DNA from: Candidatus Spongiisocius sp.
Lineage (GTDB): Bacteria > Actinomycetota > Acidimicrobiia > Spongiisociales > Spongiisociaceae
NCBI GenBank assembly: GCA_965203035.1
Contig: OZ241858.1
Location: 1,600,882-1,664,881 of the forward strand
DNA length: 64,000 nt
Reading direction: 5' to 3'
A model generated the notes under the pieces. That model worked only from the letters and a program-made list of their open reading frames with translations, was not told the DNA's origin and did not search any database. Numbering within the stretch: the stretch's first letter is position 1; every line of letters begins with the position of its first letter. Shown here piece after piece: positions 1,001 through 21,061 of this stretch. A program made the position numbers and the translations under genes.

Positions 1001-1789
1001 CTAGGAAGTCGGGAGGGGGCTGAGTAGGCGGGTGTCGATTAGGGCTTGGAAGTGGTTGGCGACGCTGGTGGCCAGAACTCGGTGGCGGATCAGGACGCCT
1101 AGCTCGATGTTTCGGTCGAGGGCGGCGGCGGTGAGGTTGGCGGAGGTGATGAAGACGGCCTCGTCGTCCACCACCACGGCTTTGGCGTGGAGTACGCCGG
1201 TGGGGCCTTCCGGGTCTAGGGAGCGGGGGTCGTAGTAGACGGCGGGCTTGGACGTGCCGGGCCAGTCCTTTCCCCAGAACTGGTCGGTGAAGCGACGGAC
1301 GAGTTGGTCTTCGGAGGTCTTGTCGCCACGGGCGCGCTGGATGTTCAGCAGGATCGTGACTCTCAGACCGGGGATGCCGTCGAGGCGTTGGGCCAGGTGG
1401 GCGAAGGCTTGGGGGCCGTCGAAGTAGGCGTAGGTGCTCACCCACACGGACCGCTCGGCGTTGTCGAACAACTCCTCGTAGACGCGGCGGGTGTCGCGGG
1501 CGTGCAGGCCCGGCACCTCGGGGCCTGACCACACCAGGTCGGGCGACGGAGCCTTGGCGGATGCTTGCTCCACGGAGCGAATCCACGCTGCAACCGCTCG
1601 CCCCGAGATTCCGAGACGTGCGAGTTGGTTGATCTCGCTGATTATCTCCTCAGCACCATCTCCGATTCCAACCTCGGATTCGAGAGACAACCGGCTTGGG
1701 CGATCAGGGAGAAGGCCATAGTCGAAGGCGTCGGCGAGCTTCCGCAATAGATTCGAGGGAAGCGCCTGGATGTGGTGGCCCGCGAACAT
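1001..1789 (-). CDS. drmC: DISARM DrmC, phospholipase-D-like (HKD) nuclease
   Basis: Single HxK(x4)D..S.N motif 'HAKAVVVDDEAVFITSANLT'. Start ATG at 1789 overlaps the drmB stop by 1 nt. The N-terminal extension in the 327-aa track ORF is Arg/Pro-rich GC artefact. Last gene of a drmD-drmMI-drmA-drmB-drmC arrangement. Confidence 0.8.
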   Translation of the reverse strand: MFAGHHIQALPSNLLRKLADAFDYGLLPDRPSRLSLESEVGIGDGAEEIISEINQLARLGISGRAVAAWIRSVEQASAKAPSPDLVWSGPEVPGLHARDTRRVYEELFDNAERSVWVSTYAYFDGPQAFAHLAQRLDGIPGLRVTILLNIQRARGDKTSEDQLVRRFTDQFWGKDWPGTSKPAVYYDPRSLDPEGPTGVLHAKAVVVDDEAVFITSANLTAAALDRNIELGVLIRHRVLATSVANHFQALIDTRLLSPLPTS

Positions 1790-3612
1790 CAGCTCATAGG
1801 GAAGAAGGCGGCGTCTTCGTGGCCGAGTACCGGCACTACGAGCGCCCTGTCGAGGTAGTCGTTGCGCATCTCGCAGGAGGTCTCGGCGATCAGGGTGCAT
1901 CCGTGACAGGCGGCGCCGTGCAGCCCACGCTCCTCGAAGTCCTGATGGGCGGTGTGCTGGGCGCAGATCGGGTCGTTGGAGCACAGCTTGCCCATCTCCA
2001 GAGCGTGGGCGAGGTGTTGCTCGAAGTGGCGGGCCTGCTGGACGAGGCCGCCCAGCGTTCCCTCGGCATCCGGACTCCCCGTGTAGAGGAGGATGCCGTA
2101 GTTGCCGGACTCTACGTACACCCGCTCACGGATGGAACTGGCCGGGTATCCGCAGCGCATCGCCATCGACTGGATGAGCAGGTGAGCCAGGGTATGCAAC
2201 AGGATGTACGGGCCGCCGGGGAACCCATCCGGCCCCTTACCTCGGCTTTGCCGCCAGGCCTTGTGGCCGTCCAGCAACTCGTTGATGCGGTCCTTGACAG
2301 GCGGGCGCTTCAACCAGGCATCGACCGCTGAGGGGTGCAGATGGGCGAACACGCCCTCTCCCCGGTTCTCGACGGCGGGGAACCATTCGGGTTCGATGGC
2401 GAGGTCGGCTCGTTCCACGTCGGTTTCGTACTCGCCGTGGATGTCCCGGACCGCCGCCTCGAAGCGGGTGAAGCCGATCAGGGCTAGAACCTCGCGCAGC
2501 CGGTGGAGCTGGAACACCGACTCGACTCCGCTGCTGATCCCGGAGTCCGGGTGCCTCCAAACATTGTCCGGCAGCCGCCGGGCGTGGAAGTCAGGATCAA
2601 CCGGCACGTCATCGCCGAACCCCTCGGGCGCGCTGAGTATGGCCTCGATCTCGGCTTCCTTGATGGACCGGTCGGATCCGGTCCCGCTGCGACGCTGTTC
2701 GATCGCCCGCATCACCTCGGCGTCGGCGAAGGGGCTCAGCGCCTCGGCAATCTTCGGTTTCCCCTTGATGAAGCTGAGGTGGAGAGGTTCAAGCACGATC
2801 TGAAGGTCGTCCCAGAGGTCGTTGACCACCCGCTCGACGGCAGTGCCCCGGTCTGGCAGGGAGAGGATGCCGACTACCTGGGGAAAGTAGGCGTTGGAGG
2901 CCGTACGGATGAGGAGCCGGCTCGGGTGGTTGCAATCCTCGGCGGTGTTCAGGCCGAGCCAGGGCCGTGTGCCTCGACAACCACCGAGCGGCCGGGTACT
3001 GATATCCGTGGCCTCGTAGAGGCGTCGCGACTTGCGACACTCGCACCGGACGACCAAGTCGGCCAGGTCCCCGGTGGTTCCTTTCTCGTCGAGCCAGAGT
3101 TGACGCCCGCAGCGTTTGCCTCGGCCGTGCACGAATCCAATCCAATCGAGGTCGTCGACGTGTCCCCTCGGGCAGGCCCGTACGAATCGGGTGGGAACCA
3201 CGGATCGACCCTCGTAGCGCCCCTTATCGTCGAGGGTCCTCCGATGCACGAGCCGGCGGGAGCGGGTCCGCCCCTTCCGAGCGGAGGGCTCGGCCCCACC
3301 AGCGCCGGACAGGTTGGCTTCCTGCACTACGAACCACTCGGGGAACCGCCACGCGCCGATGCCCTGTCCCGACGCCCAGGGTTCGGACGGTTCGGGCGGG
3401 GGAGCGTACATCTTCGGCGCCGGCACACCCGTGATGAGCCGGAGAAAACCGGTGAGCCGCGCGTCCACGACCTCGGTAAGGCCGGCCGGGCTCGGCCAGG
3501 TATCGAGGCCGCCGACGATGGCGGCATGATCGGGTAGGTCGATCAGCGCACCCGGCCCGTAGGTGGTGATCACCTGGCTCTGGCGGATCTGCCCGTGGGC
3601 CTTGGGACTCAT
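1789..3612 (-). CDS. drmB: DISARM DrmB (DUF1998-type, C-terminal Cys cluster)
   Basis: ~607 aa from internal Met 'MSPKAHGQIRQSQVITTYGPGALIDLP'. C-terminal 'CAQHTAHQ...CHGCTLIAETSCE' zinc-ribbon-like cluster typical of DUF1998. Lies between helicase drmA and PLD drmC. The track ORF N-terminus (3612-3837) overlaps drmA and is an artefact. Confidence 0.75.
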   Translation of the reverse strand: MSPKAHGQIRQSQVITTYGPGALIDLPDHAAIVGGLDTWPSPAGLTEVVDARLTGFLRLITGVPAPKMYAPPPEPSEPWASGQGIGAWRFPEWFVVQEANLSGAGGAEPSARKGRTRSRRLVHRRTLDDKGRYEGRSVVPTRFVRACPRGHVDDLDWIGFVHGRGKRCGRQLWLDEKGTTGDLADLVVRCECRKSRRLYEATDISTRPLGGCRGTRPWLGLNTAEDCNHPSRLLIRTASNAYFPQVVGILSLPDRGTAVERVVNDLWDDLQIVLEPLHLSFIKGKPKIAEALSPFADAEVMRAIEQRRSGTGSDRSIKEAEIEAILSAPEGFGDDVPVDPDFHARRLPDNVWRHPDSGISSGVESVFQLHRLREVLALIGFTRFEAAVRDIHGEYETDVERADLAIEPEWFPAVENRGEGVFAHLHPSAVDAWLKRPPVKDRINELLDGHKAWRQSRGKGPDGFPGGPYILLHTLAHLLIQSMAMRCGYPASSIRERVYVESGNYGILLYTGSPDAEGTLGGLVQQARHFEQHLAHALEMGKLCSNDPICAQHTAHQDFEERGLHGAACHGCTLIAETSCEMRNDYLDRALVVPVLGHEDAAFFPMS

Positions 3613-3614
3613 CG

Positions 3615-6600
3615 TCAGGAGTCCGACAGGGATGCGGTGAGCGGCTTGATGTGCAGGTTCACGTCCGGCTCCACGTCCCGCAGCGAGCGGTTGGCGCGGA
3701 ACTTGCGCTGGTGGGGCGAGTCGAACTCCTCCTCGAGTATCTCCCGGAGCAGGCGTCCGGGGCCCCTGCCCGACTCGTACTTCTGGTACTTCACGGCGCT
3801 GTTGACGATCTGGTAGTGCTCCACCACCGCCAGCCACGAGTCGAGCAGATCGACCACCCGGGCAGCCACGCTCTGGCGCCGATCCTCTCGCTCCGCCTCG
3901 TCATCCAACGGTTGGCTATCCACTCGTTCCTGGAAGAGTTCCCGCAGCCGTTGCTCGACCGCGGCCCGCACGGTCGTGAGCGAAGTGACACCGCCGGGCG
4001 GCGTCAGGACCGGTTGGGCGTGGCGGGCGTATCCGACCAGCGCGCCGGCCATGCCCCGGTCGAGGGCGCGCGCCGAGAACGGCGTGACGCTCGACGCCTC
4101 GACGGGCCGGTAGAAGGTCTCGTGGTAGTGGCGGAACCGTTCGTAGTGGGACCGGTCGCGAGGCTTGTGGACGTTGAGCAGCGTGACCACCAGTCCCGGC
4201 TTGCGGTCGTCGCGGCCTACGCGGCTGGTGGCCTGGATGTACTCGGCGTGGGTCTTGGGCTGGCCGAGCACCACCATCAGCCCGAGGCGGGGAATGTCGA
4301 GGCCCACCGAGATCATGTTGGTGGCGATGGCGCTGTCCACCCGATCCCTCTCGTGCGCGCCGCGCCCGAGGCGGCGCCGTGCCTCGGCCACCTTGGCGGT
4401 GGGAACCCGAGACGTCAGCTCCACGACCTCCGAGAAGGTCCGGCGATCCCGGAACAGGCCCTCCTGGTAGTTCTGGCCGATGCGCCTCCGTCCCCCGGAG
4501 GCCTTGACGGTGTTGCGGACCTCCTCCTCGAGGATGCGCCTCGCCCCACCCAGTTCGCGAAGGCTGTTGAAGTAGCCGAGCACGGTCATGTACGGATCGG
4601 CCGGGTTGTCCTCGTTGCGGTGCCCGCCGGAGTCCCGGTAGGCGCGCTCGGCCGCTCCCATGAGGGCCAACCAGACGCGACGCATCAAGGTCTTCGGGTT
4701 CCGGCCCGGTGACGCGATGCCGAGATAGAGCCGGCCGGGTACCTGATCGTTCGGAACGATCTCGGCGAAGAACGAGTCGCGCCGGTCCGGTCCAGGAGGC
4801 GGGAAGATCCGGGTGTTGGATCGGGCGAACAGGGCTTGGATCTGGTCCTGAGCCTGGCGCACCGTGGCGGTGGAAGCCACGATCTTGGGCAGCACGTCAG
4901 GGGTGGAGGCGTCTCCCTGATGATCGGTACCGGCGGCCCGCACGCACAGCGCCTCGATCACAGTCTCGTACAGCCCGGCCATGGTGCCGAGGGGCCCGGA
5001 TATCAGGTGCAGCTCGTCCTGGATCACCAGGTCGGGCCCGGGGAGCGGCCGCCCGAGGGGCTGGCCCTGCTTCGGGTCGGCGGCGCCGTAGAACCCGGCT
5101 TCGTCATAGCGATCCGCCCCGCCGAGCAATGCCCCGGTCTGGGCCGTCCACGGAAGCGAGGCGAACTTGTCCACGGTGGCGATCAGGAAGGCGGGAAGGC
5201 GGCGGTAGATGGGCTCGTCCACGCCCAGGATCGGCAGAGGGCGGTCCCCGCTGAAGTCGCACTCGAAGTCGGCGCAGACGATACGAAGCTCGGTCGGTGT
5301 GTCATCGTCGGGCCTTAGATCGAACGACGCCGGCTGGAAACGGGTGTCGCACCACGGGCAACTCTCCAAGGGGATGGGCAACGGCTTCCCCGTCGGGTCG
5401 GCCTTGAACCGGATGGTCTTGGACCGGGCCGAGTCCGACCGCCCATCGCCCTTGCGGCCCATGATGTTCGGGGTAGCCGCCTTGCCGACCCACAGGCCGA
5501 TCTCGAACGGCCAGACTCCGTAGCGCTCAGGGTCAGCCTCGCGTTCGAGTTCGAGCGCGCAGACGAGACCGGCCGCGCGGGCTAACTGGTCGAGCGTGAG
5601 CAGACGCAGCGTGTAGCGCATGATCACAGCGACCCCGGCGCCGTGCCTGCCGTCCTGGCCGGGGTTGCGGAGGCGCCTCAACACTATGGAGAAGGCGGCA
5701 AGACCCAGGTATGCCTCGGTCTTCCCGCCGCCGGTCGGGAAGAAGAGCAGGTCGACGATCTTGCGATGGGAGTGGTGCGGGTCGCCGAGGCCGGGAAGGT
5801 TCAGCAGGATGAAGGCCAGCTGGAACGCCCGCCATCGCGGGGCCGGCTCGTCAGGCCCGAGCCGCTGGCGCAGGGCTCGGGCCACAGCACGGTTGGCCAT
5901 CCTGAAGGCGTCGAGGGCATCAGGATCGTTAGCGAGAAACTCGATGCCGCTCTCGATGCGGGCGGCGGCGATGCCGGCGTGACGCAGCAGCTCCTCTGCG
6001 GTCTCCCGACGGTCGCCGTTGTGCGCTCCGAGACCGTCGCGCTGCGCATCGATCCAGGATCGATAGTGGTCCACGAGTGGGTTCAGCGCTGCGGAGGCAT
6101 CCTCGCCGTCGGCCAGAGCGCCGAGGGCCTCCATCGACAACTCAACCTCCGGGATCTTCACGGGCTCGGTCTTGGCGACGGTCGCGCTGGGGATCCAGGC
6201 CGTGCGCAGCAGGCGGCAGTCCCCATGGACCATCTCCCACTCGGCGGACACGCCGTGACCGACGGCGTACTCGGGCGTGTCGGCGTAGTGGAGGTCGGCA
6301 ACCCGGTCGTCCCACTCCGCAGCCGCCATCCCGCGGGGGTCGGGCCGGGGAACGAAGGACTCGTTGCATGTGACTTCGAGTTCCGCCTGGAATGCGTAGG
6401 CTCGGTCGGCAACTCCGGCACCAGCCGGCTTGCTCGGGACGGGCGGCCGATTGTTCACGAGAAACACCGACACCGACCGGGTTCCACGGGGGAGAGCGGC
6501 TAGACGGCGGCCGTGGATCGGCCTGGAGACGACATGCAGCCGCAGACCGCCGGACGCCGGAACCCGGTGATCGGGAGGGTCCGAGAGGTCCACCCGCACG

Positions 6601-7100
6601 GTTCGCTCCTGCGCCCTCCTCCGCCAGACGGATAGCGGTTTGCCTTCCGCATCCTCCCCCTCGCCAGGCGTGTAGTCGCCCCAGCGAACCGTCACTTCGA
6701 GTGCGCCGGTGTCCTCGGACACGAGGAAGCTCAGACCAATCGAGGACGGGAAGAAGCCCTTCTTCGCCGCCCGCCGTTCGTCGGCGGACTCCTCGACCAG
6801 CCCGGCGGTGTCCGGGACCTCGTCGAGGGAGTCGTCCTCGTCAACGTCGCTCCGGTCCTCGAACGGCGTGTCCGACGGGATCAGGAACCCGGTCAGGTAC
6901 CAGTTCGACGGTCTCCTCCAACCGGGCAGTAGTTCATCGGCGAGGTCGTGACCGGCGCCTGGTCCCACAAGGTCGAGCTTCAGCGCCTCGACCAGGTACT
7001 CGCGCACCTGCGCTGAGTCGGCGAACGCGAGTGACGACGGTGGGGAGTCAGCGATCATGCGGATGTACTGTAGGCAGAGCGCCTGACACGGAACAGCCAA
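3615..7100 (-). CDS. drmA: DISARM DrmA, DExH-box helicase (1161 aa)
   Basis: Walker A 'FFPTGGGKTEAYLG', DExH 'VIQDELHLISGPLGT', C-terminal helicase motifs. TTG start at 7100, with an in-frame stop 2 codons upstream. Confidence 0.8.
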   Translation of the reverse strand: MAVPCQALCLQYIRMIADSPPSSLAFADSAQVREYLVEALKLDLVGPGAGHDLADELLPGWRRPSNWYLTGFLIPSDTPFEDRSDVDEDDSLDEVPDTAGLVEESADERRAAKKGFFPSSIGLSFLVSEDTGALEVTVRWGDYTPGEGEDAEGKPLSVWRRRAQERTVRVDLSDPPDHRVPASGGLRLHVVSRPIHGRRLAALPRGTRSVSVFLVNNRPPVPSKPAGAGVADRAYAFQAELEVTCNESFVPRPDPRGMAAAEWDDRVADLHYADTPEYAVGHGVSAEWEMVHGDCRLLRTAWIPSATVAKTEPVKIPEVELSMEALGALADGEDASAALNPLVDHYRSWIDAQRDGLGAHNGDRRETAEELLRHAGIAAARIESGIEFLANDPDALDAFRMANRAVARALRQRLGPDEPAPRWRAFQLAFILLNLPGLGDPHHSHRKIVDLLFFPTGGGKTEAYLGLAAFSIVLRRLRNPGQDGRHGAGVAVIMRYTLRLLTLDQLARAAGLVCALELEREADPERYGVWPFEIGLWVGKAATPNIMGRKGDGRSDSARSKTIRFKADPTGKPLPIPLESCPWCDTRFQPASFDLRPDDDTPTELRIVCADFECDFSGDRPLPILGVDEPIYRRLPAFLIATVDKFASLPWTAQTGALLGGADRYDEAGFYGAADPKQGQPLGRPLPGPDLVIQDELHLISGPLGTMAGLYETVIEALCVRAAGTDHQGDASTPDVLPKIVASTATVRQAQDQIQALFARSNTRIFPPPGPDRRDSFFAEIVPNDQVPGRLYLGIASPGRNPKTLMRRVWLALMGAAERAYRDSGGHRNEDNPADPYMTVLGYFNSLRELGGARRILEEEVRNTVKASGGRRRIGQNYQEGLFRDRRTFSEVVELTSRVPTAKVAEARRRLGRGAHERDRVDSAIATNMISVGLDIPRLGLMVVLGQPKTHAEYIQATSRVGRDDRKPGLVVTLLNVHKPRDRSHYERFRHYHETFYRPVEASSVTPFSARALDRGMAGALVGYARHAQPVLTPPGGVTSLTTVRAAVEQRLRELFQERVDSQPLDDEAEREDRRQSVAARVVDLLDSWLAVVEHYQIVNSAVKYQKYESGRGPGRLLREILEEEFDSPHQRKFRANRSLRDVEPDVNLHIKPLTASLSDS

Positions 7101-7112
7101 CCCTCAGGCAAG

Positions 7113-7143
7113 GCACCCTCGTGTCCGCGCTCACGGCGAGGGT
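7113..7143. promoter_or_regulatory. perfect 8-bp-stem hairpin (caccctcg N15 cgagggtg) immediately upstream of the drmA start; possible operator or 5' structure
   Basis: Seen directly in the sequence. Lies in a ~200-bp divergent intergenic region between drmA (-) and the plus-strand small-protein operon. Confidence 0.25.
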
Positions 7144-7306
7144 GTTAACGAGATGCCGGGATGTCAACCTCTAAGGTTTTTTGGCGTTCTACTATGTCGA
7201 GCCACGATTGGCACAGGTAGAGAGTAGTGTACGATAGAGCAGGGGCACGCTGGCCAGCGGCCCGGCACCGTGATCCATGCGGATGGCACGTTCGAGGAGG
7301 TAGAGG

Positions 7307-7507
7307 ATGACCACGACATATCACATGACGCGTGAGGAGCTGTGGCAGGAGATGGAAGCTCGTCTTGAGGAGGAGCGGATGACCGTCGAGGAGTTCCGCG
7401 CCGAGGGCGAGGCGGACACGCTCACCGATGCCGAACTACGCGAGCTCTGGTTGATGTACAGGCCACTCCTGTTCGACGATGAAGAATCCCACTGGGAGGA
7501 TCGCTAG
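7307..7507 (+). CDS. small acidic protein P1 (66 aa), paralog of P2
   Basis: Shares 'EGEADTLTDA' and the flanking pattern with the next ORF. Strongly acidic. Its stop overlaps the GTG start of P2. Confidence 0.5.
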   Translation: MTTTYHMTREELWQEMEARLEEERMTVEEFRAEGEADTLTDAELRELWLMYRPLLFDDEESHWEDR

Positions 7508-7695
7508 TGGCCGAAGTAAGGATCGTCACGAACGAACAGATGATCGAGGAGGTCAAGAGCATCCTTGAGGCTGAGCACATGACCTTCGAGCGTTTCGTCT
7601 CCGAGGGGGAGGCAGATACGCTTACCGATGCTTTCCACAGGGATCTATGGCTCGACTATCGCGAGTGGATCCGAGACTGGATCAACGACACATGA
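7507..7695 (+). CDS. small acidic protein P2 (62 aa), paralog of P1
   Basis: GTG start overlapping the P1 stop. 'FERFVSEGEADTLTDAFHRDLWLDYR' aligns with P1. Its stop overlaps the ATG of the next gene (ATGA). Confidence 0.5.
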   Translation: MAEVRIVTNEQMIEEVKSILEAEHMTFERFVSEGEADTLTDAFHRDLWLDYREWIRDWINDT

Positions 7696-8387
7696 CACAG
7701 TCGTTACTCCGTCCGGCCTCCGAATCCTTCGCCGATCGACTCAACAGAGTGGTCGCGGCAGCGCTAGAGACCGATCTGCGGTTCGTGGCCAGCGTGGCGA
7801 GCAACGGTAGGCGTGCGAACGTTCGAGCCTCCGCAGTTCCGAACCGCAGATCCGACGGGTTCCCTCTGGTTCGCCTTAGCGACATACCTGGAGCACCGGC
7901 GATGTTTCTTCTGCCGAGGTTCTTCGTCGAGATCAGTCCTGAGACCGCCCGCCTTCGGGTCGCGACCTCCACCATTGGGTTGTGGGTGGACATCACCGGC
8001 GGCCGCAAGCCACCACGTCCGTTGATACGGGTCGAATACGATCGTCGACTCGATACGGGCCATGGGGCGGCCGCGCATGTTCATGTTCACGCTCACTCGC
8101 CTGAACTGGCCTGGCTTTACGGCTCCAGCGGTCTGGCTGCCCCCAATCTTCATGCTCTGCACTTCCCGGTTGGTGGTAGGAGGTTCCGACCGACACTCGA
8201 GGACTTCCTGCTCTTCCTGGACAGGGAGAACATTTTCACCCATTTCAAGGAAGGATGGAAGACCACCGTGCTGCGATCACTTCGAGAATGGGAGGAAATC
8301 CAGGCGAGGTCGACGGTACGGCAGTATCCCCGATTGGCAGCCGATGCCCTGCGAGATATGGGTTATAGAGACCTGAGGTGTGGTTAG
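7692..8387 (+). CDS. hypothetical protein P3 (~231 aa, His-rich segment 'HVHVHAHSPE')
   Basis: Internal Met of track ORF 7647..8387, coupled to P2 by an ATGA overlap. No recognised domain. Third gene of the plus-strand operon embedded in the DISARM locus. Confidence 0.45.
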   Translation: MTQSLLRPASESFADRLNRVVAAALETDLRFVASVASNGRRANVRASAVPNRRSDGFPLVRLSDIPGAPAMFLLPRFFVEISPETARLRVATSTIGLWVDITGGRKPPRPLIRVEYDRRLDTGHGAAAHVHVHAHSPELAWLYGSSGLAAPNLHALHFPVGGRRFRPTLEDFLLFLDRENIFTHFKEGWKTTVLRSLREWEEIQARSTVRQYPRLAADALRDMGYRDLRCG

Positions 8388-8830
8388 CAGTCGGACTGAT
8401 TCGACCATCGTTCCGTCGTGTTGTACGCAGAGAACAAGGCGGGAAAGAAGCCCTTCTTCGCCGTCCGCAGTTCCTCGGCCAATTCCTCCGCTAACCCGGC
8501 TTTCTCCGGCACCTCGTCGAGGGATTCGTCCTCGTCCAGGTCGCTGCGGTCCTCGAACGGCGTGTCCGACGGGATCAGAAACCCGGTCAGGTACCAGTTC
8601 GACGGTCTCCTCCATCCGGGCAGTAGTTCATCGGCGAGGTCGTGACCGGCGCCGGGTCCCACCAGGTCGAGCTTCAGCGCCTCGACCTGGTGGGAGCGCA
8701 CATCCGACGAATCGGCGAACGTCAGCGACGACGGCGGGGAGTCAGCGATCATGCGGACGTACTGTAGGCAGGGCGCCTGACACGGAACGGCCAACCCTCA
8801 GGGAGGCATGCACGGGCCACCGCTGCGGCA
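8384..8830 (-). pseudogene. degraded 5' copy of drmA (first ~115 codons plus ~10 nt upstream), roughly 85% identical to authentic drmA by eye
   Basis: Track ORF 8384..8794 translates to 'MAVPCQAPCLQYVRMIADSPPSS...GFFP', matching the drmA N-terminus, then diverges to a stop. Nucleotides 8700-8830 align with 7020-7120. Confidence 0.7.
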
Positions 8831-8892
8831 CGGGAGTGATGGCCGACTATCTAGAGGAATACCGAGGCCGCCGCCTGGGAAACCCAACATCA

Positions 8893-9336
8893 TCAGCGAC
8901 CGGCAGCTCTGGCTGCCTTTTCGATCCAAGTGCCAAGGTTATCGTAACCCTTATGCCATTTCCAAAGATAGAAGGGGTAACCGCGTGGAATCCTGCCGCA
9001 ACGCGAGCTAGTTTTCCCGGCGAGATCTTTGATCTTACTTATATCGACCCCCAGAAGGCCATTGCCACGTTCTTTGCTCGCCTTGATCTCGTACTTGACC
9101 CATTTGCTCCTGCACGTGTGCGACCCCACAAGAACTACTGTGACCGAAGTTCCCTTCAGTTGTTCATCAATCCAGTTCTTGATCGCCTCGTCTCCGCGCT
9201 GTTTGATCTCTTCGAATTCGGCCTTGTCAATGAATCCGGACGCTTCCTTGCCCTGAGTAACCCAACTATTGCGGACAACCATCGCTCGCGAGACATCGTG
9301 GTCGTACTCGAAACTGAAGAATACCCGGCGAGCCAT
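8893..9336 (-). CDS. TIR-like domain protein (DUF1863 / ThsB-like), 147 aa
   Basis: 'RVFFSFEYDHDVSRAMVVRNSW...SVTVVLVGSHTCRSKWVKYEI' matches the DUF1863 TIR-like pattern (FISY..D......W......S..V.vL.S......S.WV..Ei). Local GC ~50% versus ~68% in flanking DNA. Confidence 0.6.
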   Translation of the reverse strand: MARRVFFSFEYDHDVSRAMVVRNSWVTQGKEASGFIDKAEFEEIKQRGDEAIKNWIDEQLKGTSVTVVLVGSHTCRSKWVKYEIKASKERGNGLLGVDISKIKDLAGKTSSRCGRIPRGYPFYLWKWHKGYDNLGTWIEKAARAAGR

Positions 9337-9355
9337 CTATCTTTCTCCTGTACGA

Positions 9356-9751
9356 TTAGCTGACTAGAACAGCAACTAGAACACCTATTGCTACAGCCAT
9401 ATAGAAGCTGACAAGTGTCACAGAGAACATCGAGGAGCGCCATGCCAGTTTCGTGCCCTTGAATCGGTTTGTTCTCATCGAGAAGTCGATCTCCTCAGGC
9501 TGCAGGAGACGCACGTGATCGTACAGAGCACGGTACAGTCGTTCTTGGCGAAGGAAATAGGCGTCTAAACCCCAGAACACCAGCGTAGGGAGAAGGCCAA
9601 CCAGCGCCCAGTCGCTTTCGCCCTGCCGCGAAACCAGCACGAGTAGGGCGGAAACCAGCACGACGCTCCACCCCTTCAACATGAAGGAGTTGAAGGCCAT
9701 GCGGTTGATGACACCCTGGATCAGTTCCAAGTGCTTCAGCTTGGATTCCAT
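9356..9751 (-). CDS. small integral membrane protein (~131 aa, 3 predicted TM helices); possible SLATT-like effector
   Basis: Start chosen at 'MESKLKHL' with GGGAGGG 6 nt upstream. Hydrophobic segments 'WSVVLVSALLVLV', 'WALVGLLPTLVFWGL', 'FSVTLVSFYMAVAIGVLVAVLVS'. Sits 19 nt upstream of the TIR-like gene on the same strand, in the same low-GC block. Confidence 0.55.
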   Translation of the reverse strand: MESKLKHLELIQGVINRMAFNSFMLKGWSVVLVSALLVLVSRQGESDWALVGLLPTLVFWGLDAYFLRQERLYRALYDHVRLLQPEEIDFSMRTNRFKGTKLAWRSSMFSVTLVSFYMAVAIGVLVAVLVS

Positions 9752-13490: not shown

Positions 13491-13498
13491 GCTATACC

Positions 13499-13734
13499 AA
13501 CTCCTTGTCCATCTGGACGGCCACATGGACAAGGACTGGCTCAGGTACCTCAAAACTTTGCTTGTCAACCCGCTCGGCCCAAACCTGCGCAACGTGCATA
13601 TGCACGGTTTGGCACAACAGGGAACACGTGAACAGGCTGCAGTGCTAATCCATGCGGTCGTGTTTCTCGCGTCGTTGCGAGTGAGTATCCAACCGGGGGA
13701 CGGTGCTGACGTTGAGGGAGATAGCATCCACTAG
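13499..13734 (+). pseudogene. C-terminal ~78 codons of the IS-split gene, carrying an Rx4H HEPN-like motif 'NLRNVHMHG'
   Basis: Reading continues '...RSLY|QLLVHLDGHMDKDW...' directly after the right target duplication. Part of track ORF 13411..13734. Confidence 0.5.
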
Positions 13735-13769
13735 CCTGATTGATTGGTCGGTGTCCGCGGTGAGCCAGA

Positions 13770-16700
13770 CTAGAGGTCGGTCTCCCACAGTGTCCTGGAC
13801 GTAGTGGTGCCGGTGAACGCCCCATCAGAGCGCCGACGCTGCGGCGCGTTCTCCCCACTCATGGGCTTTCTGAGGCCGGCGCGGGCTTCTTCGGCGGCGC
13901 GTTGGGCGTTGAGTTCTAGGAGGCGGGCTAGCACCTCGTCGCGGATGGGATCGGGCCAGCGGTAGCGGTAGGGCTTCTTCTTTCTGCCCCAGGTCTCCTC
14001 GTCGATTTCGTAGTCGAGTAGGAACTCGCAGTCCGTGGGGATGTCGGTCCAGCCATAGGCGTTCAGCACAGCTCGATCCATGGCTGTGTGCAGACGACGG
14101 AGCTCGGTGATCTCGGCATCGTTCTCGTAGGGATCGTGGAAGCGGTTGTAGATCTTGGTCATCCCCTCGCCATAGCGAACCATGAGCGCCGCCCGGAATT
14201 CATAGTACTCACTGCCGACTGCTTCAAAATCGTAGCGGCTCCGCCAGTTCTCAGGAAACGGAAAAGTCTCGAAACAATCCGACGGCGTATAACGCAGGTC
14301 GTCCTTCATTGAAGATCCAAAGAATAGTGCCCAAGCTTCGTGAGGTCGTGCCTGTAGAGCGGAAAAGGCGGCGTAGTTCTCGACCGGATAGACGTTTAGC
14401 GTGTGTCCATACACCATATTTGACGGCAGGAACGCAAACTGTACATGGTTGCTAACCTGAGAGTTAGCTAGTACACGCGCTAATTTGTCGACTCTGCTAT
14501 AGAGTTCCTTTGCATGATGAACGAACTGCCACCAGATGGACGCTCGTTTGCCATGACCTGACTTACTGATTCTCGCCGACTCCATCCGCTCTGGCCTAAC
14601 TGACTCCTCTATAATCGAAAGGAGATGAGGATATAGGTAGCGGCATTCCTCCAGTGCCATTTCTCCGAAGTTAATTACGAATCGGTGATGTGATTGTGTC
14701 GCGCTAGTGTTAAGTTCCTTGCCTCCAATATAAGGGAATATCACGTTGCCATAGTGGGGATTCTCTCTCAGGAGATCTCTCATTGTCTCTATCGGTGTAG
14801 CAAGGCCTCCGCGCCCTGCATCGTCGAAGGAAAACCCGCCAATCCCAAGAATATAGCTGCCAACGAAGCTACTTCCTATATTGGTTCGAAGAGGTAGTGG
14901 GTCATCGTGGCCACCTCTATTGGACAAGAAGGCGGTAATCTTGTCAACGACCTGCCCATCTATGTATCTATGACCGCCGTATTGGCCCTTGCTGATGTGG
15001 ACGATACTCACGACTACTGCGGCTAGCCCCGGCCAACTGACGCGTCGACGAGCGTTATATATCTGACCGCCCTTCTTACAGATCCAACGTAACCCGCTGG
15101 CACGTGTATCTCCTTGGGCAATAGTGTTGGTGGCGATTAAACCTAGTGTCCCATTCCGGCGGATCAGATCGTAGGATCGCCGATAGAAGTGAGCGACTAC
15201 ATCGCACTTACCTGTGCTCTCAGGATGGGTCAGCCTCAACCACTGTGTGTAGCCGCGCACGTTAGCGTTGACAACTGTGTTATGGCCACCGAACGGTGGG
15301 TTGCCGACTATGGTGTCAAACCCTGGGTTGGGCCGGTCGAAGACTTCGGGGAACGCAATCTGCCAGTGGAACGGGGCAAGTGGTGGATCACCGTACCGTA
15401 GTTCGGTCAGCCATCCCTTGTACTGACCGGCGGACCCGTTGAGCACCGCGGACGCGAACTTCTTGCGGCGCTCCTCCCGAGCCTTGGGCTTGGACTCATC
15501 GAAGAAGGCGGCCAGTACCAGGTCACCGAGCATCTGCACCTCGTCCGTCTCGTCCCGCGCTTCCCGCCACCAGGCTCGTCGTTCCCAGTCGGACACGGTG
15601 TCATCCGCCTCGCGGATTCGACGGCGCAGATCGTTGGCGCGATCGAGGTGTTCCTGTCCTCGCAGTGCTTCGAAACCGGCCTGGAAGATGGGGGCTTTGC
15701 CCTTCCAATGGAAGGTCCGTGTCTGGGGTATCGAGAGTCCCACCAGCGAGTCGCCGTGTCGCAGGGCGTGATCCAGGAAGGTCAATGGATGGTCCTTGGC
15801 CAGGGTGATCAGCCAGAGTGACAGCTTGGCGAGATCCACGGCCTTGGGGTTGCGGTCCACTCCGTAGAGGCAGCGCTGGGCCACCAGCCGCCGGGCGAAG
15901 ATCTGCTCGTCCTCGTCGGGCGGGATCTCGGGCATGGCGTCGTGGGCGCGCCACGATTCGATGAGTTGATCGGCGAGTTGGCGGCAGGCCTCCACCAGGA
16001 AGGCAGCCGATCCCATGGCCGGGTCGCACACCTTGAGGTCGAGAATCTGATCGGGACGGACCGGGCCGCCGGCCTCGGTAGCTAGCCGATCCAGGATGGG
16101 TTCCAGCGCCTTACGGACGATGGGCTCGGTGAGCTCGCGGGGCGTGTAATGCGAGCCGGACTTTCGGCGTTCCTCGCTCGGCTGCAGCACCATGGCGCCT
16201 GCCGCTACCAGGTCCGGAGTGGCGTTGCGATCAAGAACCGAATCGAGCGCCGCATGCATCTCGTCGAGGGAACCAGACTCCCGAACCGCCTTACCCACCT
16301 TTGTGGTGAGCGTGCGGTCGGTACGGTCCCGGATCCACTTGACCCGCTTGGACGGTTCCTGTCCCAGTAGGGCTTCGAGGTTCACCGTGGCGGGAGCGCC
16401 ATGCTTCTTGGTGGCCTTGATGGCAACGCTCCGGCCTGAGGCGGTCTCGAGGCGGAAACCCATCATGGTCTCGTAGACCGAGCCGATGTGCTCCACATCA
16501 AGCGCCCGGTAGGAGATGCGCTCGGCGTCCAGGACGATGAGCTTCTCCAGCACCCGGTGGATCGTGCCGTCCCCGATGCGCGGCGGCTCGATCCTCTCCA
16601 ATGTCTGCCGCGGGCCGAAGTCACGGCCTTCGAGGAACGGGTAGCGATCGGGGCGGAAGAGATCGCCGTACTTGGGCGCCATTGACATCTGCCCGGCGTT

Positions 16701-17834
16701 GGCGCCGTCGTGGACCATGCGCCAGAGGGCCAGGAGTTGGGCGTAGGCGCCGTAGCGCTGGTCCATGGTGTCCGGGTGCTGGGAAGCGTCGGCTCGCAGC
16801 CGCTCGTAGAGACCGGACACCGAGTAGGCGCCCAGGAAGGTCTCGTCCTGGGGCAGCAGGTCCCGCTCCTCGGCGTACAGCAGGTAGACGAGGCGCAGTA
16901 CCACCGTCAGCAGTCCCCGGTAGATCTCGTCGGGATCCTCCGCAAGCCAGCGCCCGAGCAGCCGACCTTCAGACGCGTCATGAGCGGCCTGGAAGCCTCG
17001 CAGCAGTTCGTAGAGTGCGTGGAGCACCTGTTCGGCCAGGCGCTCGCTCACCTCGTTCTGGAACTTGCGGCTGTCCTCCAGTAGCGCCGCCAGGCGCTTC
17101 TCCCGCGGCACGCTTAGCAGGCGCGTCTCTCCGAGAAGCTCGCGCATGGCTGAGCAGATCGGTCGGCCTGCCGTCTGGACCATGTCGCTCACCTGGAAGT
17201 CCAGCCATCCCGAACTCTCACCCCGGGGCGCGGAGACGAGGCGCAACGTTCCGCCATTGAATAGGAGCCCCGCTGGAACGCCCGTGTTTCGCAACAGCCG
17301 CTCCATCCGGCCATGAGGTGACAGGTCCAGACCGCCGCCGGAGACAGCGCGGTCCAGGTCCTCGCCGGGTTCGCACACGCTGACCAGCAGTTGCCATGGA
17401 GAGGGTTCGTCCTCTTGCTCGTCACCCTTAGGAACGGCGGGCCGCACCGGAGCCCGGAGCGGTTCGGAGCGAACTGCGAAGTCGGGCCGGAACGCCTGGC
17501 CGGATTCCGGCAGCGGAAGCTCCAGGTCCGTGGGGATCGGCGCCTCAGCGGTGCCGGCATAGCCCTTCGGGGAGAACCTCCAACCGAGCACTTTCGCGGC
17601 GAACTGCCGGAAGTCCGGAAGTTCGGTCGTGGTGCCGGCCGGATCGGGAGCGCCGTTCTCAACCCACTCGCGGAGTAGCTTCTGGCCTGGGATATCCCGG
17701 AGGTTCAGGATCACGCCCGCCTTCACGAGCGCAGGCGCCGACACCACCAGGCCGGTAGGTCGGACGAACCCGATCCACTCCAGATGGTCGATTACCCGCT
17801 GGTCACGCTTCGCCATCAGTTGGTCTCCGGCCAC
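13770..17834 (-). CDS. drmMI: DISARM DrmMI, N6-adenine DNA methyltransferase (Eco57I-like), ~1350 aa
   Basis: Motif IV 'TIVGNPPFGGHN' and AdoMet-binding region. Large size typical of DrmMI. The start region overlaps the drmD stop (alternative start 17816). Confidence 0.85.
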   Translation of the reverse strand: MAGDQLMAKRDQRVIDHLEWIGFVRPTGLVVSAPALVKAGVILNLRDIPGQKLLREWVENGAPDPAGTTTELPDFRQFAAKVLGWRFSPKGYAGTAEAPIPTDLELPLPESGQAFRPDFAVRSEPLRAPVRPAVPKGDEQEDEPSPWQLLVSVCEPGEDLDRAVSGGGLDLSPHGRMERLLRNTGVPAGLLFNGGTLRLVSAPRGESSGWLDFQVSDMVQTAGRPICSAMRELLGETRLLSVPREKRLAALLEDSRKFQNEVSERLAEQVLHALYELLRGFQAAHDASEGRLLGRWLAEDPDEIYRGLLTVVLRLVYLLYAEERDLLPQDETFLGAYSVSGLYERLRADASQHPDTMDQRYGAYAQLLALWRMVHDGANAGQMSMAPKYGDLFRPDRYPFLEGRDFGPRQTLERIEPPRIGDGTIHRVLEKLIVLDAERISYRALDVEHIGSVYETMMGFRLETASGRSVAIKATKKHGAPATVNLEALLGQEPSKRVKWIRDRTDRTLTTKVGKAVRESGSLDEMHAALDSVLDRNATPDLVAAGAMVLQPSEERRKSGSHYTPRELTEPIVRKALEPILDRLATEAGGPVRPDQILDLKVCDPAMGSAAFLVEACRQLADQLIESWRAHDAMPEIPPDEDEQIFARRLVAQRCLYGVDRNPKAVDLAKLSLWLITLAKDHPLTFLDHALRHGDSLVGLSIPQTRTFHWKGKAPIFQAGFEALRGQEHLDRANDLRRRIREADDTVSDWERRAWWREARDETDEVQMLGDLVLAAFFDESKPKAREERRKKFASAVLNGSAGQYKGWLTELRYGDPPLAPFHWQIAFPEVFDRPNPGFDTIVGNPPFGGHNTVVNANVRGYTQWLRLTHPESTGKCDVVAHFYRRSYDLIRRNGTLGLIATNTIAQGDTRASGLRWICKKGGQIYNARRRVSWPGLAAVVVSIVHISKGQYGGHRYIDGQVVDKITAFLSNRGGHDDPLPLRTNIGSSFVGSYILGIGGFSFDDAGRGGLATPIETMRDLLRENPHYGNVIFPYIGGKELNTSATQSHHRFVINFGEMALEECRYLYPHLLSIIEESVRPERMESARISKSGHGKRASIWWQFVHHAKELYSRVDKLARVLANSQVSNHVQFAFLPSNMVYGHTLNVYPVENYAAFSALQARPHEAWALFFGSSMKDDLRYTPSDCFETFPFPENWRSRYDFEAVGSEYYEFRAALMVRYGEGMTKIYNRFHDPYENDAEITELRRLHTAMDRAVLNAYGWTDIPTDCEFLLDYEIDEETWGRKKKPYRYRWPDPIRDEVLARLLELNAQRAAEEARAGLRKPMSGENAPQRRRSDGAFTGTTTSRTLWETDL

Positions 17835-20800
17835 AGGTATACGAGACCCACCGGCTCGACCCGCTTCACGTGCACGTCGTAGAAGTCGCGCACCCGGGCC
17901 GGCTCGCCTGCCAGATCCTCGTCGAACTGGGCGAGCCTTCTGCGCCAGTGCCGGATGTCGGCGTTGAGCTGCCTCGTTTCCTGGGCGTTGAATCCGAAGG
18001 TGAGTTGCTTCTGGTCGCGTTCGTAGCGTTCGAGTTGGGCGACCACTTGGGCACGGTGCCGCTCGAGGGTCTCTCGCAGCGACTGTTCCTCCCGCTCCCC
18101 GCGTTCGGCAAGCCGTTGCTCAGCTATTGCCGCGAATTCCGCCGCCCGAGGCTCCAGTTGCGGACGGAGATCAGCGATGTCTTGGGCGGCGCCAGCGAGC
18201 AGCCTACGGCGGATCACCTGGTCGGGTTCGCGGGCGGGGGAGTCCAGTGACTCGTCAAGGAGCCTCATGGTCCGTTCCCGTGCATCCCGGGCGTAGGCGC
18301 GCAGCGGTCCGGAGCGCCGTTCCGGTTCGCTCCAGCGGGCCGCCACCGGCACGATCTGCTCGTGCAGACGCTCGGCGCCCCGGCCGTACAGTGACAGGCG
18401 CCCGAGCAGGATGACGCGCGGGATCGAGTCCTTCGTCTGGGCGAGGCACGCCCGGGACAGATCGTGATAGATGAACCCCTGGGCGCGGAACCGGGCCAGC
18501 AGCCGCTGCGCCACCCGCTGCTCCAGATGCAGGTGCACGGTCTGATCGTCGAGCCGTCCGGTGTCCTCGAACACGACGGGCCGGAGGGGCGCGTCGCGCC
18601 GCCAGTCGGGGACCTTCTGGTCGATCCGGCGGGGCACGCGCAGGGAATCGAGGGTGGAGGTCCAGCTGGGATCGGTGGCTGCCCGCTGCTCCAGAGCGGG
18701 GAACGTCCACACCCGGTGGCCGTTGTCACCGGCGCTCTCGGCGAGTTCCGAGGCTCCGAGCAGGCGGAGGGAGCAGTTGATGGCCTGGCGGAACGGTTCC
18801 GCCGAGAACCGGACCCAATCCCGTGACTTCGCGAGGAGCGCCCGGCAGCGCTCGACCTGGTCCTTCAAGTCCTCGCGCCGTTCGCGGGCCGCCTCTATCT
18901 CCTCGGCGGCGGCAAGGGTGCTCTCGCCCTCGGGAGACTCCGCCTCGATACGGCGCCTCAGGGCGTCCGCGTCACTGTGACGGATGCCATCCCGGATCAG
19001 GCGTTGCTCCACCGCATCCTCGATCACCTTCGGAAGGCCACCCAGCTCTTTCTTGATGGTCTCGGTCTTGCGGACCAGCACTTCGAGCACCCGATCCTCG
19101 ACCCGCTGCGGCAGCACGAAGTAGTGGCAGGTCACTTCCGCGGCCGGTTGCAGCTTGCGGTCGATGCGACCGTTGCGCTGCTCGATACGGCCCGGATTCC
19201 ACGGCAGGTCGAAATGGAACATGTCCCGGCAGCGGGCCTGCAGGTTGAGTCCCTCACGGGCGGCGTCGGTGGCTATCAGGATTCGCAGGGGCTCGTCGGC
19301 CGGGTCGGCGTTGAAGCGGCGCTGTATCTCGCGCCGGCGCGCCGGTCTGGTTCGCCCGTCGATCACGCCTATCCGCTCGTCGGCCCGGTCGGTGCCGAAG
19401 ATGGCCTGCTCCAGGGTCGACTTCAGATACCGCTTGGTGCCCTGCCGGTTCTCAGTGAAGATCAGCACGCGCCTATCCGTCCATGCCGGCGGGGGACCGG
19501 TGAGCGGTGCACCGAACTCGGGAAGCGCCGGGCACTGGTTGCGGCGTATCCACTCGATCAGCCACCGGGTCTTGGCATCCGGAAGGTGTTTGGTCTCGTC
19601 CGCGATCTCCTGCATGCGTAGTAGGAGAGCCTGCTCACGTTCCCAGGCCGTTGTGTCGGGATGTTCCGACGGACGGGCGGCCGCCGTGATCTCTCTGACC
19701 TGGTCGGTCTCGTCGGCGTCCTCATCCTGCCTGGTCCACTCGGCCCTCTCATCGTCGGCATCAGGTGATTGCACGAAAAGGTGCGTTTGGTCGGGGTCGA
19801 TTTCCGGTCGAGCATCGGTTTCTTGCTGGGCTTCCTTCCACTGACGGAACACGGTGCGGCGATGCACCACGAGGGTGCGGGCGAACGCCTCGATCGAAGA
19901 CAGCAACCGCTGCTGCAAGCCCACCACCATCAACCCGGCGGCATGCCGGACGCGGCTGGACTCTGATAGGAAACGTTGCTCGCGAGCTGTCCGGTACTCG
20001 TCCAAGAGGCGGGAGAGCTGCAACTCGGGGGCGTCATCGGGTAGGCCGGCGATCTCGATCCGCTCGACGTTGCGCTTGGGGAAACCGCCTTGGAGCTCGC
20101 GGATGTCCTCCTTGAGGCGCCGGACCATCACGGGTGCAAGGTCGGTCTTGGGACGGGTCACCTTGACGCCGCGGGTGAATCTGTAAGGATCGAGCAGCTC
20201 CAGCAGAGTGGAGAAGCTGTTGGAGTGGCCGTTGTGTGGCGTGGCCGACAGGAACAGCCGATGCTCGAACCTGTGGGCGAGATCACGCACCGCCCGGGTG
20301 AACTTGGTCTCGATGCCGTACCGGCCGCCCGAGGAAGGAGCGGCGTGGTGGGCCTCGTCGAGGATCAGCAGGCTTCCGGTCCGGTGGTCACCCAGCCACT
20401 CCCGCATGGGGTCCGTGTAGGACGGGTCGATCAGCAGCCGGTGCGAGATCAGGAACCGGCTGTGGGTTCGCCAGGGATTCACACCGAAGCCGCGTTCTCG
20501 CCGCATTTTCGATACGTACCGCCGGTCGAGCACCTCGAACACGAGGCCGAACCGGTCCTCCATCTCCCCCTTCCACTGTTCCAACATCGACGGGGGCGCC
20601 GCCACGACTATGACCTTCACCTTGCGGCGCAGCAACAGCTCGCGGGTAATCAGGCCCGCCTCGATGGTCTTGCCCAGGCCTGTGTCGTCTGCGATCAGCA
20701 AGTTGACACGGGGGAGTAGCAGCGCCTTGCGAAGGGGCTCCATCTGGTAAGCGTCGATAGTGATCCCGGCCCTGAAGGGCGCCTGGAACAGGGTGGGATC

Positions 20801-21061
20801 GGTGGCCGTGGTGCAGTTCCAGCGCAGCGTGTTCAGGAACGCCGCGAACTGGTGCGGCGGATCGAGACCCTTGGCGGCCAGGCCGTCCCATCCCGCATCC
20901 TCGATGATCATGCGGTCCGGTTCGTACTCCCAGAACACATCGAGCGACTGGCCCTGGTTGTCGTCGTCCACACACGCCAGCCGCACCAGCGGCGACTCTC
21001 CGGGGTTGTCCGACCTGGCGACCTCTTCCACAATCCAGCGCCGAGATCGAACCTGGACCAA
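17816..21061 (-). CDS. drmD: DISARM DrmD, SNF2-family helicase (1081 aa)
   Basis: 'LIADDTGLGKTIEAG' (Walker A), 'LLILDEAHHAAP' (DEAH), C-terminal helicase 'VLIFTENRQGTKRYL'. Confidence 0.85.
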   Translation of the reverse strand: MVQVRSRRWIVEEVARSDNPGESPLVRLACVDDDNQGQSLDVFWEYEPDRMIIEDAGWDGLAAKGLDPPHQFAAFLNTLRWNCTTATDPTLFQAPFRAGITIDAYQMEPLRKALLLPRVNLLIADDTGLGKTIEAGLITRELLLRRKVKVIVVAAPPSMLEQWKGEMEDRFGLVFEVLDRRYVSKMRRERGFGVNPWRTHSRFLISHRLLIDPSYTDPMREWLGDHRTGSLLILDEAHHAAPSSGGRYGIETKFTRAVRDLAHRFEHRLFLSATPHNGHSNSFSTLLELLDPYRFTRGVKVTRPKTDLAPVMVRRLKEDIRELQGGFPKRNVERIEIAGLPDDAPELQLSRLLDEYRTAREQRFLSESSRVRHAAGLMVVGLQQRLLSSIEAFARTLVVHRRTVFRQWKEAQQETDARPEIDPDQTHLFVQSPDADDERAEWTRQDEDADETDQVREITAAARPSEHPDTTAWEREQALLLRMQEIADETKHLPDAKTRWLIEWIRRNQCPALPEFGAPLTGPPPAWTDRRVLIFTENRQGTKRYLKSTLEQAIFGTDRADERIGVIDGRTRPARRREIQRRFNADPADEPLRILIATDAAREGLNLQARCRDMFHFDLPWNPGRIEQRNGRIDRKLQPAAEVTCHYFVLPQRVEDRVLEVLVRKTETIKKELGGLPKVIEDAVEQRLIRDGIRHSDADALRRRIEAESPEGESTLAAAEEIEAARERREDLKDQVERCRALLAKSRDWVRFSAEPFRQAINCSLRLLGASELAESAGDNGHRVWTFPALEQRAATDPSWTSTLDSLRVPRRIDQKVPDWRRDAPLRPVVFEDTGRLDDQTVHLHLEQRVAQRLLARFRAQGFIYHDLSRACLAQTKDSIPRVILLGRLSLYGRGAERLHEQIVPVAARWSEPERRSGPLRAYARDARERTMRLLDESLDSPAREPDQVIRRRLLAGAAQDIADLRPQLEPRAAEFAAIAEQRLAERGEREEQSLRETLERHRAQVVAQLERYERDQKQLTFGFNAQETRQLNADIRHWRRRLAQFDEDLAGEPARVRDFYDVHVKRVEPVGLVYLWPETN

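Follow-up and report, generated by a model that had tools for sequence, protein, structure and literature searches.

What occupies the 6.7 kb that separate drmMI from drmA in the DISARM locus of an acidimicrobial genome, and how did it get there? The locus lies on contig OZ241858.1 (GenBank assembly GCA_965203035.1) of a Candidatus Spongiisocius sp. and was analyzed within a 64,000-nucleotide stretch (positions 1,600,882 to 1,664,881), which we call the window and whose numbering is used throughout. The original prediction for this DNA, made from the letters alone, had recognized a complete class 1 DISARM split at this junction by an accessory insert of about 6.6 kb. We consider it likely that the locus is an intact, chromosomal class 1 DISARM whose drmMI-drmA junction is a cargo bay for other defense genes, with the cargo having been layered there by recombination.

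The host system is a complete class 1 DISARM, with all five genes intact at the level of sequence. They are encoded on the minus strand in the order drmD-drmMI-drmA-drmB-drmC, the arrangement that Ofir et al. reportedly described for this class in 2018:

17816-21061 (-), drmD, SNF2-like helicase of 1081 amino acids (aa); PADLOC, NCBIfam, Pfam and motifs
13770-17834 (-), drmMI, full-length N6-adenine methyltransferase of the MmeI/Eco57I type, 1354 aa; PADLOC, Pfam and motifs
3615-7058 (-), drmA, DExH helicase, 1147 aa; PADLOC, NCBIfam and motifs
1789-3612 (-), drmB, DUF1998/MZB protein, 607 aa; PADLOC, Pfam and NCBIfam
1001-1789 (-), drmC, PLD-family protein, 262 aa; PADLOC, Pfam and NCBIfam

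These assignments, like the diagnostic motifs pointed out in the original prediction, are borne out: five long open reading frames (ORFs) lie at these positions, PADLOC profiles match all five products, Pfam domains of the DISARM proteins are recovered, and the NCBIfam cut-offs are passed by DrmA, DrmB, DrmC and DrmD. DrmD (PADLOC 3.1e-298; NCBIfam DISARM_DrmD 1006.6 bits against a cut-off of 610) carries GLGKT at 128 and DEAH at 235, and Pfam finds SNF2-rel_dom and Helicase_C in it. DrmMI is aligned by PADLOC over residues 14-1334 to positions 7-1334 of a 1347-position profile (E=0, 1252.9 bits); Pfam recovers Eco57I, MmeI_Mtase, MmeI_TRD and N6_Mtase, the motifs are DPAMGS and NPPF (845), and the NCBIfam search returned no specific model for it. 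DrmA, which is 100% identical to a 1147-aa database protein (P0001), scores 1.5e-267 with PADLOC and 1117 bits with the NCBIfam equivalog DISARM_DrmAS (cut-off 950), and has GGGKT and DELH. DrmB shows the CHGC cluster (PADLOC 1e-77; NCBIfam DrmB_fam 543 bits, cut-off 240; Pfam MZB 6.9e-10, 39.9 bits, cut-off 24.2), and DrmC just one HxKxxxxD motif, HAKAVVVD (PADLOC 4.7e-78; PLDc_2 4.3e-14; NCBIfam DISARM_DrmC_I 178 bits, cut-off 133). The starts of drmA (7058), drmB (3612) and drmC (1789) were set later than those of the maximal ORFs by colinearity with the gene calls of relatives; drmB begins 2 nucleotides (nt) past the drmA stop by colinearity with the related locus L001 (L-numbers denote the comparison loci). 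The flanking genes are of the housekeeping type and encode a ROK regulator, an M20 peptidase and a sugar ABC transporter; relatives share these flanks, which makes the position a stable chromosomal site. Rfam and tRNA scans gave no match and no tRNA gene, and hence no tRNA-linked island.

The gap between drmMI and drmA measures 6669 bp (7101-13769) by ORF ends, or 6711 bp (7059-13769) from the homology-supported drmA start. It contains what had been foreseen, namely opposite-strand genes, an insertion sequence (IS) with an ISL3 transposase, and partial duplicates of both flanking genes (87% and 85% repeats). From the drmA side to the drmMI side these are:

7307-7507 and 7507-7695 (+), two tandem paralogous small acidic proteins of 66 and 62 aa, upstream of p231; ORFs
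7692-8387 (+), divergent from drmA, p231, a 231-aa His-rich protein with function not assigned; ORF, homologs and AlphaFold
8436-8837 (-), drmA' scar, comprising about 85 bp of drmA upstream sequence (with the hexamer TACAGT) and the first 104 codons; 87% repeat and tblastn match to DrmA 1-130 (1.2e-47)
8893-9336 (-), PDC-M50B, an intact ThsB-like TIR protein of 147 aa; PADLOC, Pfam and PDB
9356-9751 (-), PDC-M50A, an intact membrane protein of 131 aa; PADLOC 2.8e-48, profile 1-131/134
9819-10186 (-), drmMI' scar, a drmMI pseudogene that covers the final ~110 codons and contains an in-frame TGA; 85% repeat and tblastn match to DrmMI 1241-1352 (3.96e-34)
10563-12057 (+), 5' part of a PDC-S39 gene (DUF7380 + DUF7002); PADLOC 8.7e-26, Pfam DUF7380 4.3e-11
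12058-13490 (-), ISL3-family IS (transposase 12071-13369); Pfam, NCBIfam, inverted repeats and target duplication
13499-13734 (+), 3' part of the PDC-S39 gene, severed by the IS; ORF restoration

The insert is not a single unit but is composite and nested, assembled from at least four independent pieces, and its cargo has a GC content of 0.45-0.6 as against 0.65-0.69 in the DISARM core.

Is the junction itself prone to receive such DNA? We surveyed a single genome per species, which added 80 DrmA loci spread over many phyla, mapped the five genes in them with tblastn and determined the length of each junction; flanks extended up to 10 kb, such that very large inserts are missed. Inserts longer than 600 bp are distributed as follows:

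drmD-drmMI: 4 of 42 loci
drmMI-drmA: 38 of 58 loci, with a median gap of 2.3 kb
drmA-drmB: 6 of 77 loci
drmB-drmC: 0 of 63 loci

One DISARM junction takes nearly all the cargo traffic; when the count is limited to loci in which drmD is visible too, 26 of 42 have drmMI-drmA inserts. The cargo is rich in defense functions: 133 gap ORFs, from 37 loci, match 377 PADLOC families at E<=1e-5, the commonest being HEC-01A, AriA, NsnB, GajA, AbiLi, PDC-M07A, mad3 and Old. Of these ORFs, 81 are co-oriented with DISARM and 52 opposite to it, with ORF calling being approximate in GC-rich DNA. The suggestion that this gap is a hotspot for accessory or defense cargo therefore stands. The accompanying view that drmMI and drmA are canonically adjacent describes the 20 of 58 loci that have no insert, a minority state in our sample.

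Among close relatives the content of the bay turns over. DrmA homologs with 82-96% identity come from Acidimicrobiia-type assemblies, and eight such relatives carry eight different cargo sets at drmMI-drmA, with only the p231 module (the two small acidic proteins and p231) common to all. These sets include the following, where "opposite" refers to the strand of the DISARM genes:

L001: 432-aa and 210-aa genes; an AbiJ_NTD4 protein (opposite)
L002: 103-aa and 140-aa genes; a 321-aa gene and an AAA_15/AAA_21/DUF3696 ATPase (opposite)
L003: PDC-M50A/B; a PD-Lambda-3_B/Ymh protein (opposite)
L004: a Piwi-like 484-aa protein and a DUF4365 protein (opposite), a short-Argonaute pair
L005: PDC-M50A/B immediately behind drmMI, followed by the Argonaute pair of L004
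L018: PDC-M50A, then p231 with three small-gene paralogs
L006: an ISL3 transposase fragment adjoining p231

The short-Argonaute-like pair (L004 5859-8632, L005 5658-8434) consists of a ~485-aa protein with a faint Piwi match and a 440-aa DUF4365 protein, both on the opposite strand. With eight relatives bearing eight gene sets, the 6.7-kb region does not belong to a conserved core of the system, an outcome in keeping with the original prediction. We hold it most improbable that the region represents a functional, conserved element of some DISARM subtype, encoding extra subunits that act alongside DrmABC and DrmD/MI. The p231 module does lie divergently beside drmA in all nine clade loci, the window included, and PDC-M50 genes recur after drmMI in L003, L005, L018 and L077; yet the remaining cargo is different in every relative, the 20 insert-free loci do without any of it, and the p231 module also occurs apart from DISARM, in triple arrays by Dnd-like and other defense genes and in L089. 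Moreover, the module is 70% identical to that of L001 at the nucleotide level, as opposed to 96% for the adjacent drmA. The whole locus is indeed a mosaic in its identity to L001: 90.6% over drmD and the 5' part of drmMI, none over 14478-14899, 81% over the 3' part of drmMI, 70% over p231 and 96.3% over drmABC.

The question of how the cargo came to be layered can be approached here since the window is an unusually legible case, with both gene-end scars around an intact cargo pair, a dated IS hit, and relatives that show the "before" or "alternative" states. The two gene-end repeats (drmMI, 13862-14116 versus 9923-10177, 85% identity; drmA, 6743-7042 versus 8437-8736, 87% identity) are far above chance, with blastn E-values of 1e-80 to 1e-136. 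Compared with the functional alleles of the clade, both scars stand apart, at 75-82% for drmMI' and 84-90% for drmA'; the resident drmMI and drmA ends group with those of L001 and L002 (88-93%). The ratio of nonsynonymous to synonymous substitution rates (dN/dS) between drmA' and functional alleles is 0.25-0.28, computed from 104 codons with 38 differences, as compared with 0.12-0.21 among functional drmA 5' ends. So low a ratio implies that most of the divergence accrued under selection in a working gene of another lineage, which in turn argues against duplication in place; a small relaxed component was probably added later. The drmA' ORF of the window is still open (ATG 8752 to stop 8384), but a conserved truncated protein can be rejected as its copies in L002 and L005 have in-frame stops.

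Scars of this type recur. Searching each locus's own gene ends against its own gap identified them in 9 of 39 cargo-bearing loci, with lengths of 33 to ~400 nt and including L026, L032, L042, L045 and L048 from distant phyla. Within the clade, drmA' scars are also found just beyond the p231 module in L002, L003 and L005 (4 of 9 loci with the window), with differing breakpoints. In the window, drmMI' and drmA' bracket the PDC-M50 pair just as drmMI and drmA do in other genomes: PDC-M50 orthologs directly follow drmMI in L005, L018 and L077, and a drmMI 3' remnant in L003, with L077, from a member of the Rhodospirillaceae, having exactly drmMI-PDC-M50A-PDC-M50B-drmA. This points to an older or foreign drmMI-M50A-M50B-drmA junction as the source of the scars.

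A clean double crossover leaves no duplicates; hence, each scar needs at least one non-homologous join. The simplest mechanism would be homology-facilitated illegitimate recombination, in which one side of an exchange is anchored in homologous sequence of the conserved DISARM genes and the other is closed by an illegitimate join, with each event adding cargo and stranding a gene end. In such a scenario, DNA of other DISARM variants would have been superimposed on both flanks of the older or foreign drmMI-M50A-M50B-drmA junction: one event would have brought in the present 3' part of drmMI along with PDC-S39, and another the p231 module along with the present 5' end of drmA. PDC-S39 would have been knocked out by a recent ISL3 insertion. 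The reverse order, in which a 1.75-kb foreign junction fragment was dropped into the bay, is also conceivable.

Alternatively, cassettes carrying replacement gene ends might have been inserted site-specifically, in an integron- or integrase-like manner, at the 5' end of drmA and the 3' end of drmMI. A displaced gene end beside a restored full-length gene is the classic signature of such integration, and short duplications of the extreme 3' end of drmMI flank the cargo in L032 and L045. L002 offers a further hint in its two drmA fragments within the gap (5259-5483 and 8371-8769), of which the one with codons 137-211 lies upstream of the embedded ATPase pair and the one with codons 1-133 downstream, a permuted order such as the opening of a circle near codon 133 would give. 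We nevertheless judge this explanation unlikely: PADLOC and Pfam scans of the gap revealed no integrase or recombinase other than the ISL3 transposase, p231 resembles no known recombinase, scars vary between loci from 33 to ~400 nt in length, and the scar breakpoints of the window and L002 are ~28 nt apart, with their upstream limits differing too. These differing breakpoints likewise weaken the candidacy of a fixed attachment site at drmA codon ~133.

The IS would be a recent layer. It displays all three hallmarks of an ISL3 element: an ISL3 DDE transposase (DDE_Tnp_ISL3 3.5e-56; NCBIfam transpos_ISL3 281 bits against a cut-off of 180), terminal inverted repeats at 12058-12083 and 13465-13490 that begin GGCTCT (matches expected by chance = 0), and a perfect 8-bp target duplication, GCTATACC, at 12050-12057 and 13491-13498. 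The PDC-S39 gene that it struck is convergent with drmMI, the stop codons being 35 bp apart. Deleting 12058-13498 in silico restores a single 576-aa ORF and raises its PDC-S39 match from 88.8 to 121.9 bits (8e-36, profile 74-583/615). In light of the perfect repeats, the 8-bp duplication and the restorable ORF, the hit looks recent and appears to have inactivated a cargo gene; by its sequence the product is a PDC-S39 member, although one that is probably non-functional in this genome.

A destroyed gene and two pseudogene fragments might also be read as signs of a decaying DISARM, split and inactivated by mobile DNA, with the scars being mere debris; in the same vein, L003 has lost drmD and most of drmMI, and the drmMI of L004 is split. 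This seems very unlikely to us, as the five drm genes of the window are full length against their profiles with catalytic motifs intact, the drmA 5' ends are under purifying selection among relatives (the dN/dS of 0.12-0.21 given above), the split arrangement persists over relatives with 82-96% DrmA identity, and a promoter-like motif is conserved before drmA.

That motif bears on the transcription of the split system. The original prediction held that the insert must decouple drmABC from drmD-drmMI; with a convergent gene, an IS and a conserved hexamer before the drmA ATG this is plausible, but "must" is too strong. The feature in question is:

7067-7072 (-), TACAGT, a hexamer resembling a -10 element, 8 nt before the drmA ATG (7058); sequence conservation

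The sequence directly before the ATG is GCCTACAGTAC. The window, L001-L006 and L018 all have TACAGT at exactly this spacing, despite divergence of the sequence around it; the hexamer is kept in the drmA' scars and absent where drmMI and drmA abut. Leaderless transcripts are common in Actinomycetota, and the conservation suggests that TACAGT is a putative -10 element of a leaderless drmABC transcript. A generic sigma-70 scan of the gap gave no enrichment over shuffled sequences (1 promoter-like site versus 1.7 expected), and a terminator scan of the gap found 2 terminator-like sites versus 5.2 expected in shuffles. On balance, drmD-drmMI and drmABC are likely to be separate transcription units.

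Several considerations weigh against the layered-cargo account and temper our confidence in it. In addition to these two scans and the small number of codons behind the drmA' dN/dS, the scar junctions come without a donor sequence with which microhomology could be compared, and the direction of events can be read both ways, as a foreign fragment inserted or as resident flanks overwritten. As the drmA' scar lies beside the p231 module in all four scarred clade loci, it could reflect one ancient event maintained by gene conversion. Further, PDC-M50 and PDC-S39 are candidate systems only, and the activity of DISARM, the PDC-M50 pair and the p231 module in this organism is predicted.

Among the cargo, the p231 module is, by virtue of being common to the whole clade, an old piece of the insert. 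Its two small acidic proteins share an EGEADTLTD motif, and 55-62-aa orthologs of them precede every p231 homolog examined. p231 itself has no match in Pfam, PADLOC or NCBIfam and belongs to a family of 207 detectable homologs, all unnamed and devoid of Pfam domains, with E115 and a His cluster (H129, H131, H133, H154 and H157) as its conserved residues. Its confident AlphaFold model (pLDDT 86, pTM 0.86) has no Foldseek match at E<=0.001 in PDB or BFVD, and there is no profile match to PDB sequences; the best viral fold matches, to herpesvirus primase subunits (E 0.015-0.06, TM ~0.2), are not significant and constitute a weak lead. A role for p231 as a recombinase driving cassette exchange is unsupported, given the lack of a family match and of a PDB or viral fold at E<=0.001. 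Pairs of a small acidic protein (55-66 aa) and a ~232-aa protein form triple tandem arrays in other Acidimicrobiia defense islands (L086 9837-12969, L087 9837-13987), where their neighbors include NYN, helicase, T5orf172, Fic and a Dnd-like set. In L089 (6563-7881; module 6823-7924), where no DISARM genes are present, the window's three-gene module recurs at 92.8% identity, together with the drmA upstream region, its putative promoter and the first ~26 nt of drmA; the p231 gene in this copy is frameshifted and the contig is of low coverage. With the module found beside unrelated defense genes and in the non-DISARM L089, we reject p231 as a DISARM-specific accessory or regulator; as it occurs without DISARM, it is one more cargo module rather than a DISARM subunit. 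Perhaps it is a toxin-antitoxin-like or defense pair.

The intact PDC-M50 pair combines a TIR protein with a small membrane protein. PDC-M50B is recovered by PADLOC as ThsB (7.5e-58) and PDC-M50B (1.8e-48) and by Pfam as ThsB_TIR (2.6e-24, 85.9 bits). It aligns to the ThsB structures 6LHY (from Bacillus cereus) and 9B7D at 9e-24, with the Glu of its VKYEI matched to VRYEI; we take this Glu to be the ThsB catalytic residue E85. PDC-M50A shows three hydrophobic segments in its sequence and lacks any Pfam domain, be it SIR2, Macro or SLOG, and PADLOC does not match it to ThsA. By analogy with Thoeris, the TIR protein would make a nucleotide signal on infection, with the membrane protein PDC-M50A as the putative effector. 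A literature search on PDC-M50 found no paper.

The DISARM core shows variability of its own. Within drmMI, GC content drops to 0.45-0.58 over 14200-15300 (core, 0.65-0.69), a region that includes:

14478-14899 (-), a hypervariable low-GC segment in the target-recognition domain region of drmMI; nucleotide comparison and GC

This segment has no nucleotide match to close relatives, as against 81-91% for the flanking drmMI sequence, which suggests a specificity-domain swap beside the cargo bay. In L003 (GCA_001752985.1, LXNI01000052.1, 3783-13899), drmD is lost and drmMI is reduced to its final ~220 codons, with intact drmA/B/C, PDC-M50A/B and the p231 module retained, amounting to a DISARM without methylase. 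The drmMI of L004 (1568-5655) is called as two genes of 234 and 1138 aa, and that of the cyanobacterial L063 (4061-5806) is interrupted by ~1.7 kb; either may reflect an insertion or a frameshift. A second variable zone lies just downstream of drmC in relatives (L001 16163-21731, L003 13990-19493, L004 16105-23204, L005 16172-20275), with a HEPN_RES_NTD1+RES protein, a giant domainless protein of 1200-1750 aa and a Macro-domain protein; the window covers 1 kb past drmC. About 8 kb beyond drmD, among housekeeping genes, is a gene for an AAA_14 + DUF4143 ATPase (29449-30624).

Taken together, these observations allow a tentative pair of linked proposals, which we regard as possible though somewhat less probable than not. 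First, the class 1 drmMI-drmA junction would be a junction-specific cargo bay, whose cassettes are exchanged between variants by recombination at the ends of drmMI and drmA, with the stranded ends as a fossil record. Second, the p231 module would be a new, rapidly diversifying defense or toxin-antitoxin family that forms tandem arrays in other defense islands. Irrespective of these, the analysis flags PDC-M50, with its TIR and small membrane proteins, PDC-S39, and the His-rich p231 family with its tandem arrays in Acidimicrobiia defense islands as candidates.

In relation to known systems, the locus has the five genes of class 1 DISARM in the same order and strand, with catalytic motifs intact, but differs in that 6.7 kb of DNA, with genes in both orientations, separates drmMI from drmA, and in that drmABC probably has its own promoter. 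The PDC-M50 pair resembles Thoeris in coupling a clear ThsB homolog, with its aligned Glu, to one partner gene. However, this partner is a 131-aa membrane protein and not a ThsA of the SIR2-SLOG or Macro-TM type, and PADLOC files the pair as the candidate PDC-M50; lacking a ThsA-type partner, it is Thoeris-like in logic rather than a Thoeris member. As for the proposed mode of exchange, tRNA-targeting islands insert at the end of a gene, for which they bring a replacement copy, and homology-facilitated illegitimate recombination occurs in natural transformation. As in both, a diverged gene end is here stranded beside a restored full-length gene; unlike the tRNA-targeting islands, there is no integrase, the breakpoints are not fixed and the anchor is a defense gene instead of a tRNA gene.

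Finally, the embedding of defense genes in multi-gene systems, DISARM among them, has already been published in a survey that built the PDC models, PDC-M50 and PDC-S39 among them, from embedded genes and reports 96.7% of such genes to be co-oriented with the host system (Payne et al. 2024, bioRxiv 10.1101/2024.01.29.577857). Co-orientation is typical of embedded genes but not strictly required. Accordingly, the present locus is not a new kind of system. It agrees with the cases of that survey in having at least eight extra features between drmMI and drmA, known or candidate defense genes included. It departs from them in that PDC-S39 and the three-gene p231 module are in the opposite orientation, as are 52 of the 133 gap ORFs surveyed here, with PDC-M50A/B co-oriented, and in preserving gene-end scars that point to a mechanism of exchange. 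What it adds is the specificity for one junction, frequent opposite-strand cargo in the clade, the scars themselves and an uncharacterized protein family. The survey, which left open how embedded genes come and go, offers in its main text a "genomic sink" as the sole hypothesis of origin; the scars, read together with the relatives, give an indication of how such cargo is acquired and exchanged.

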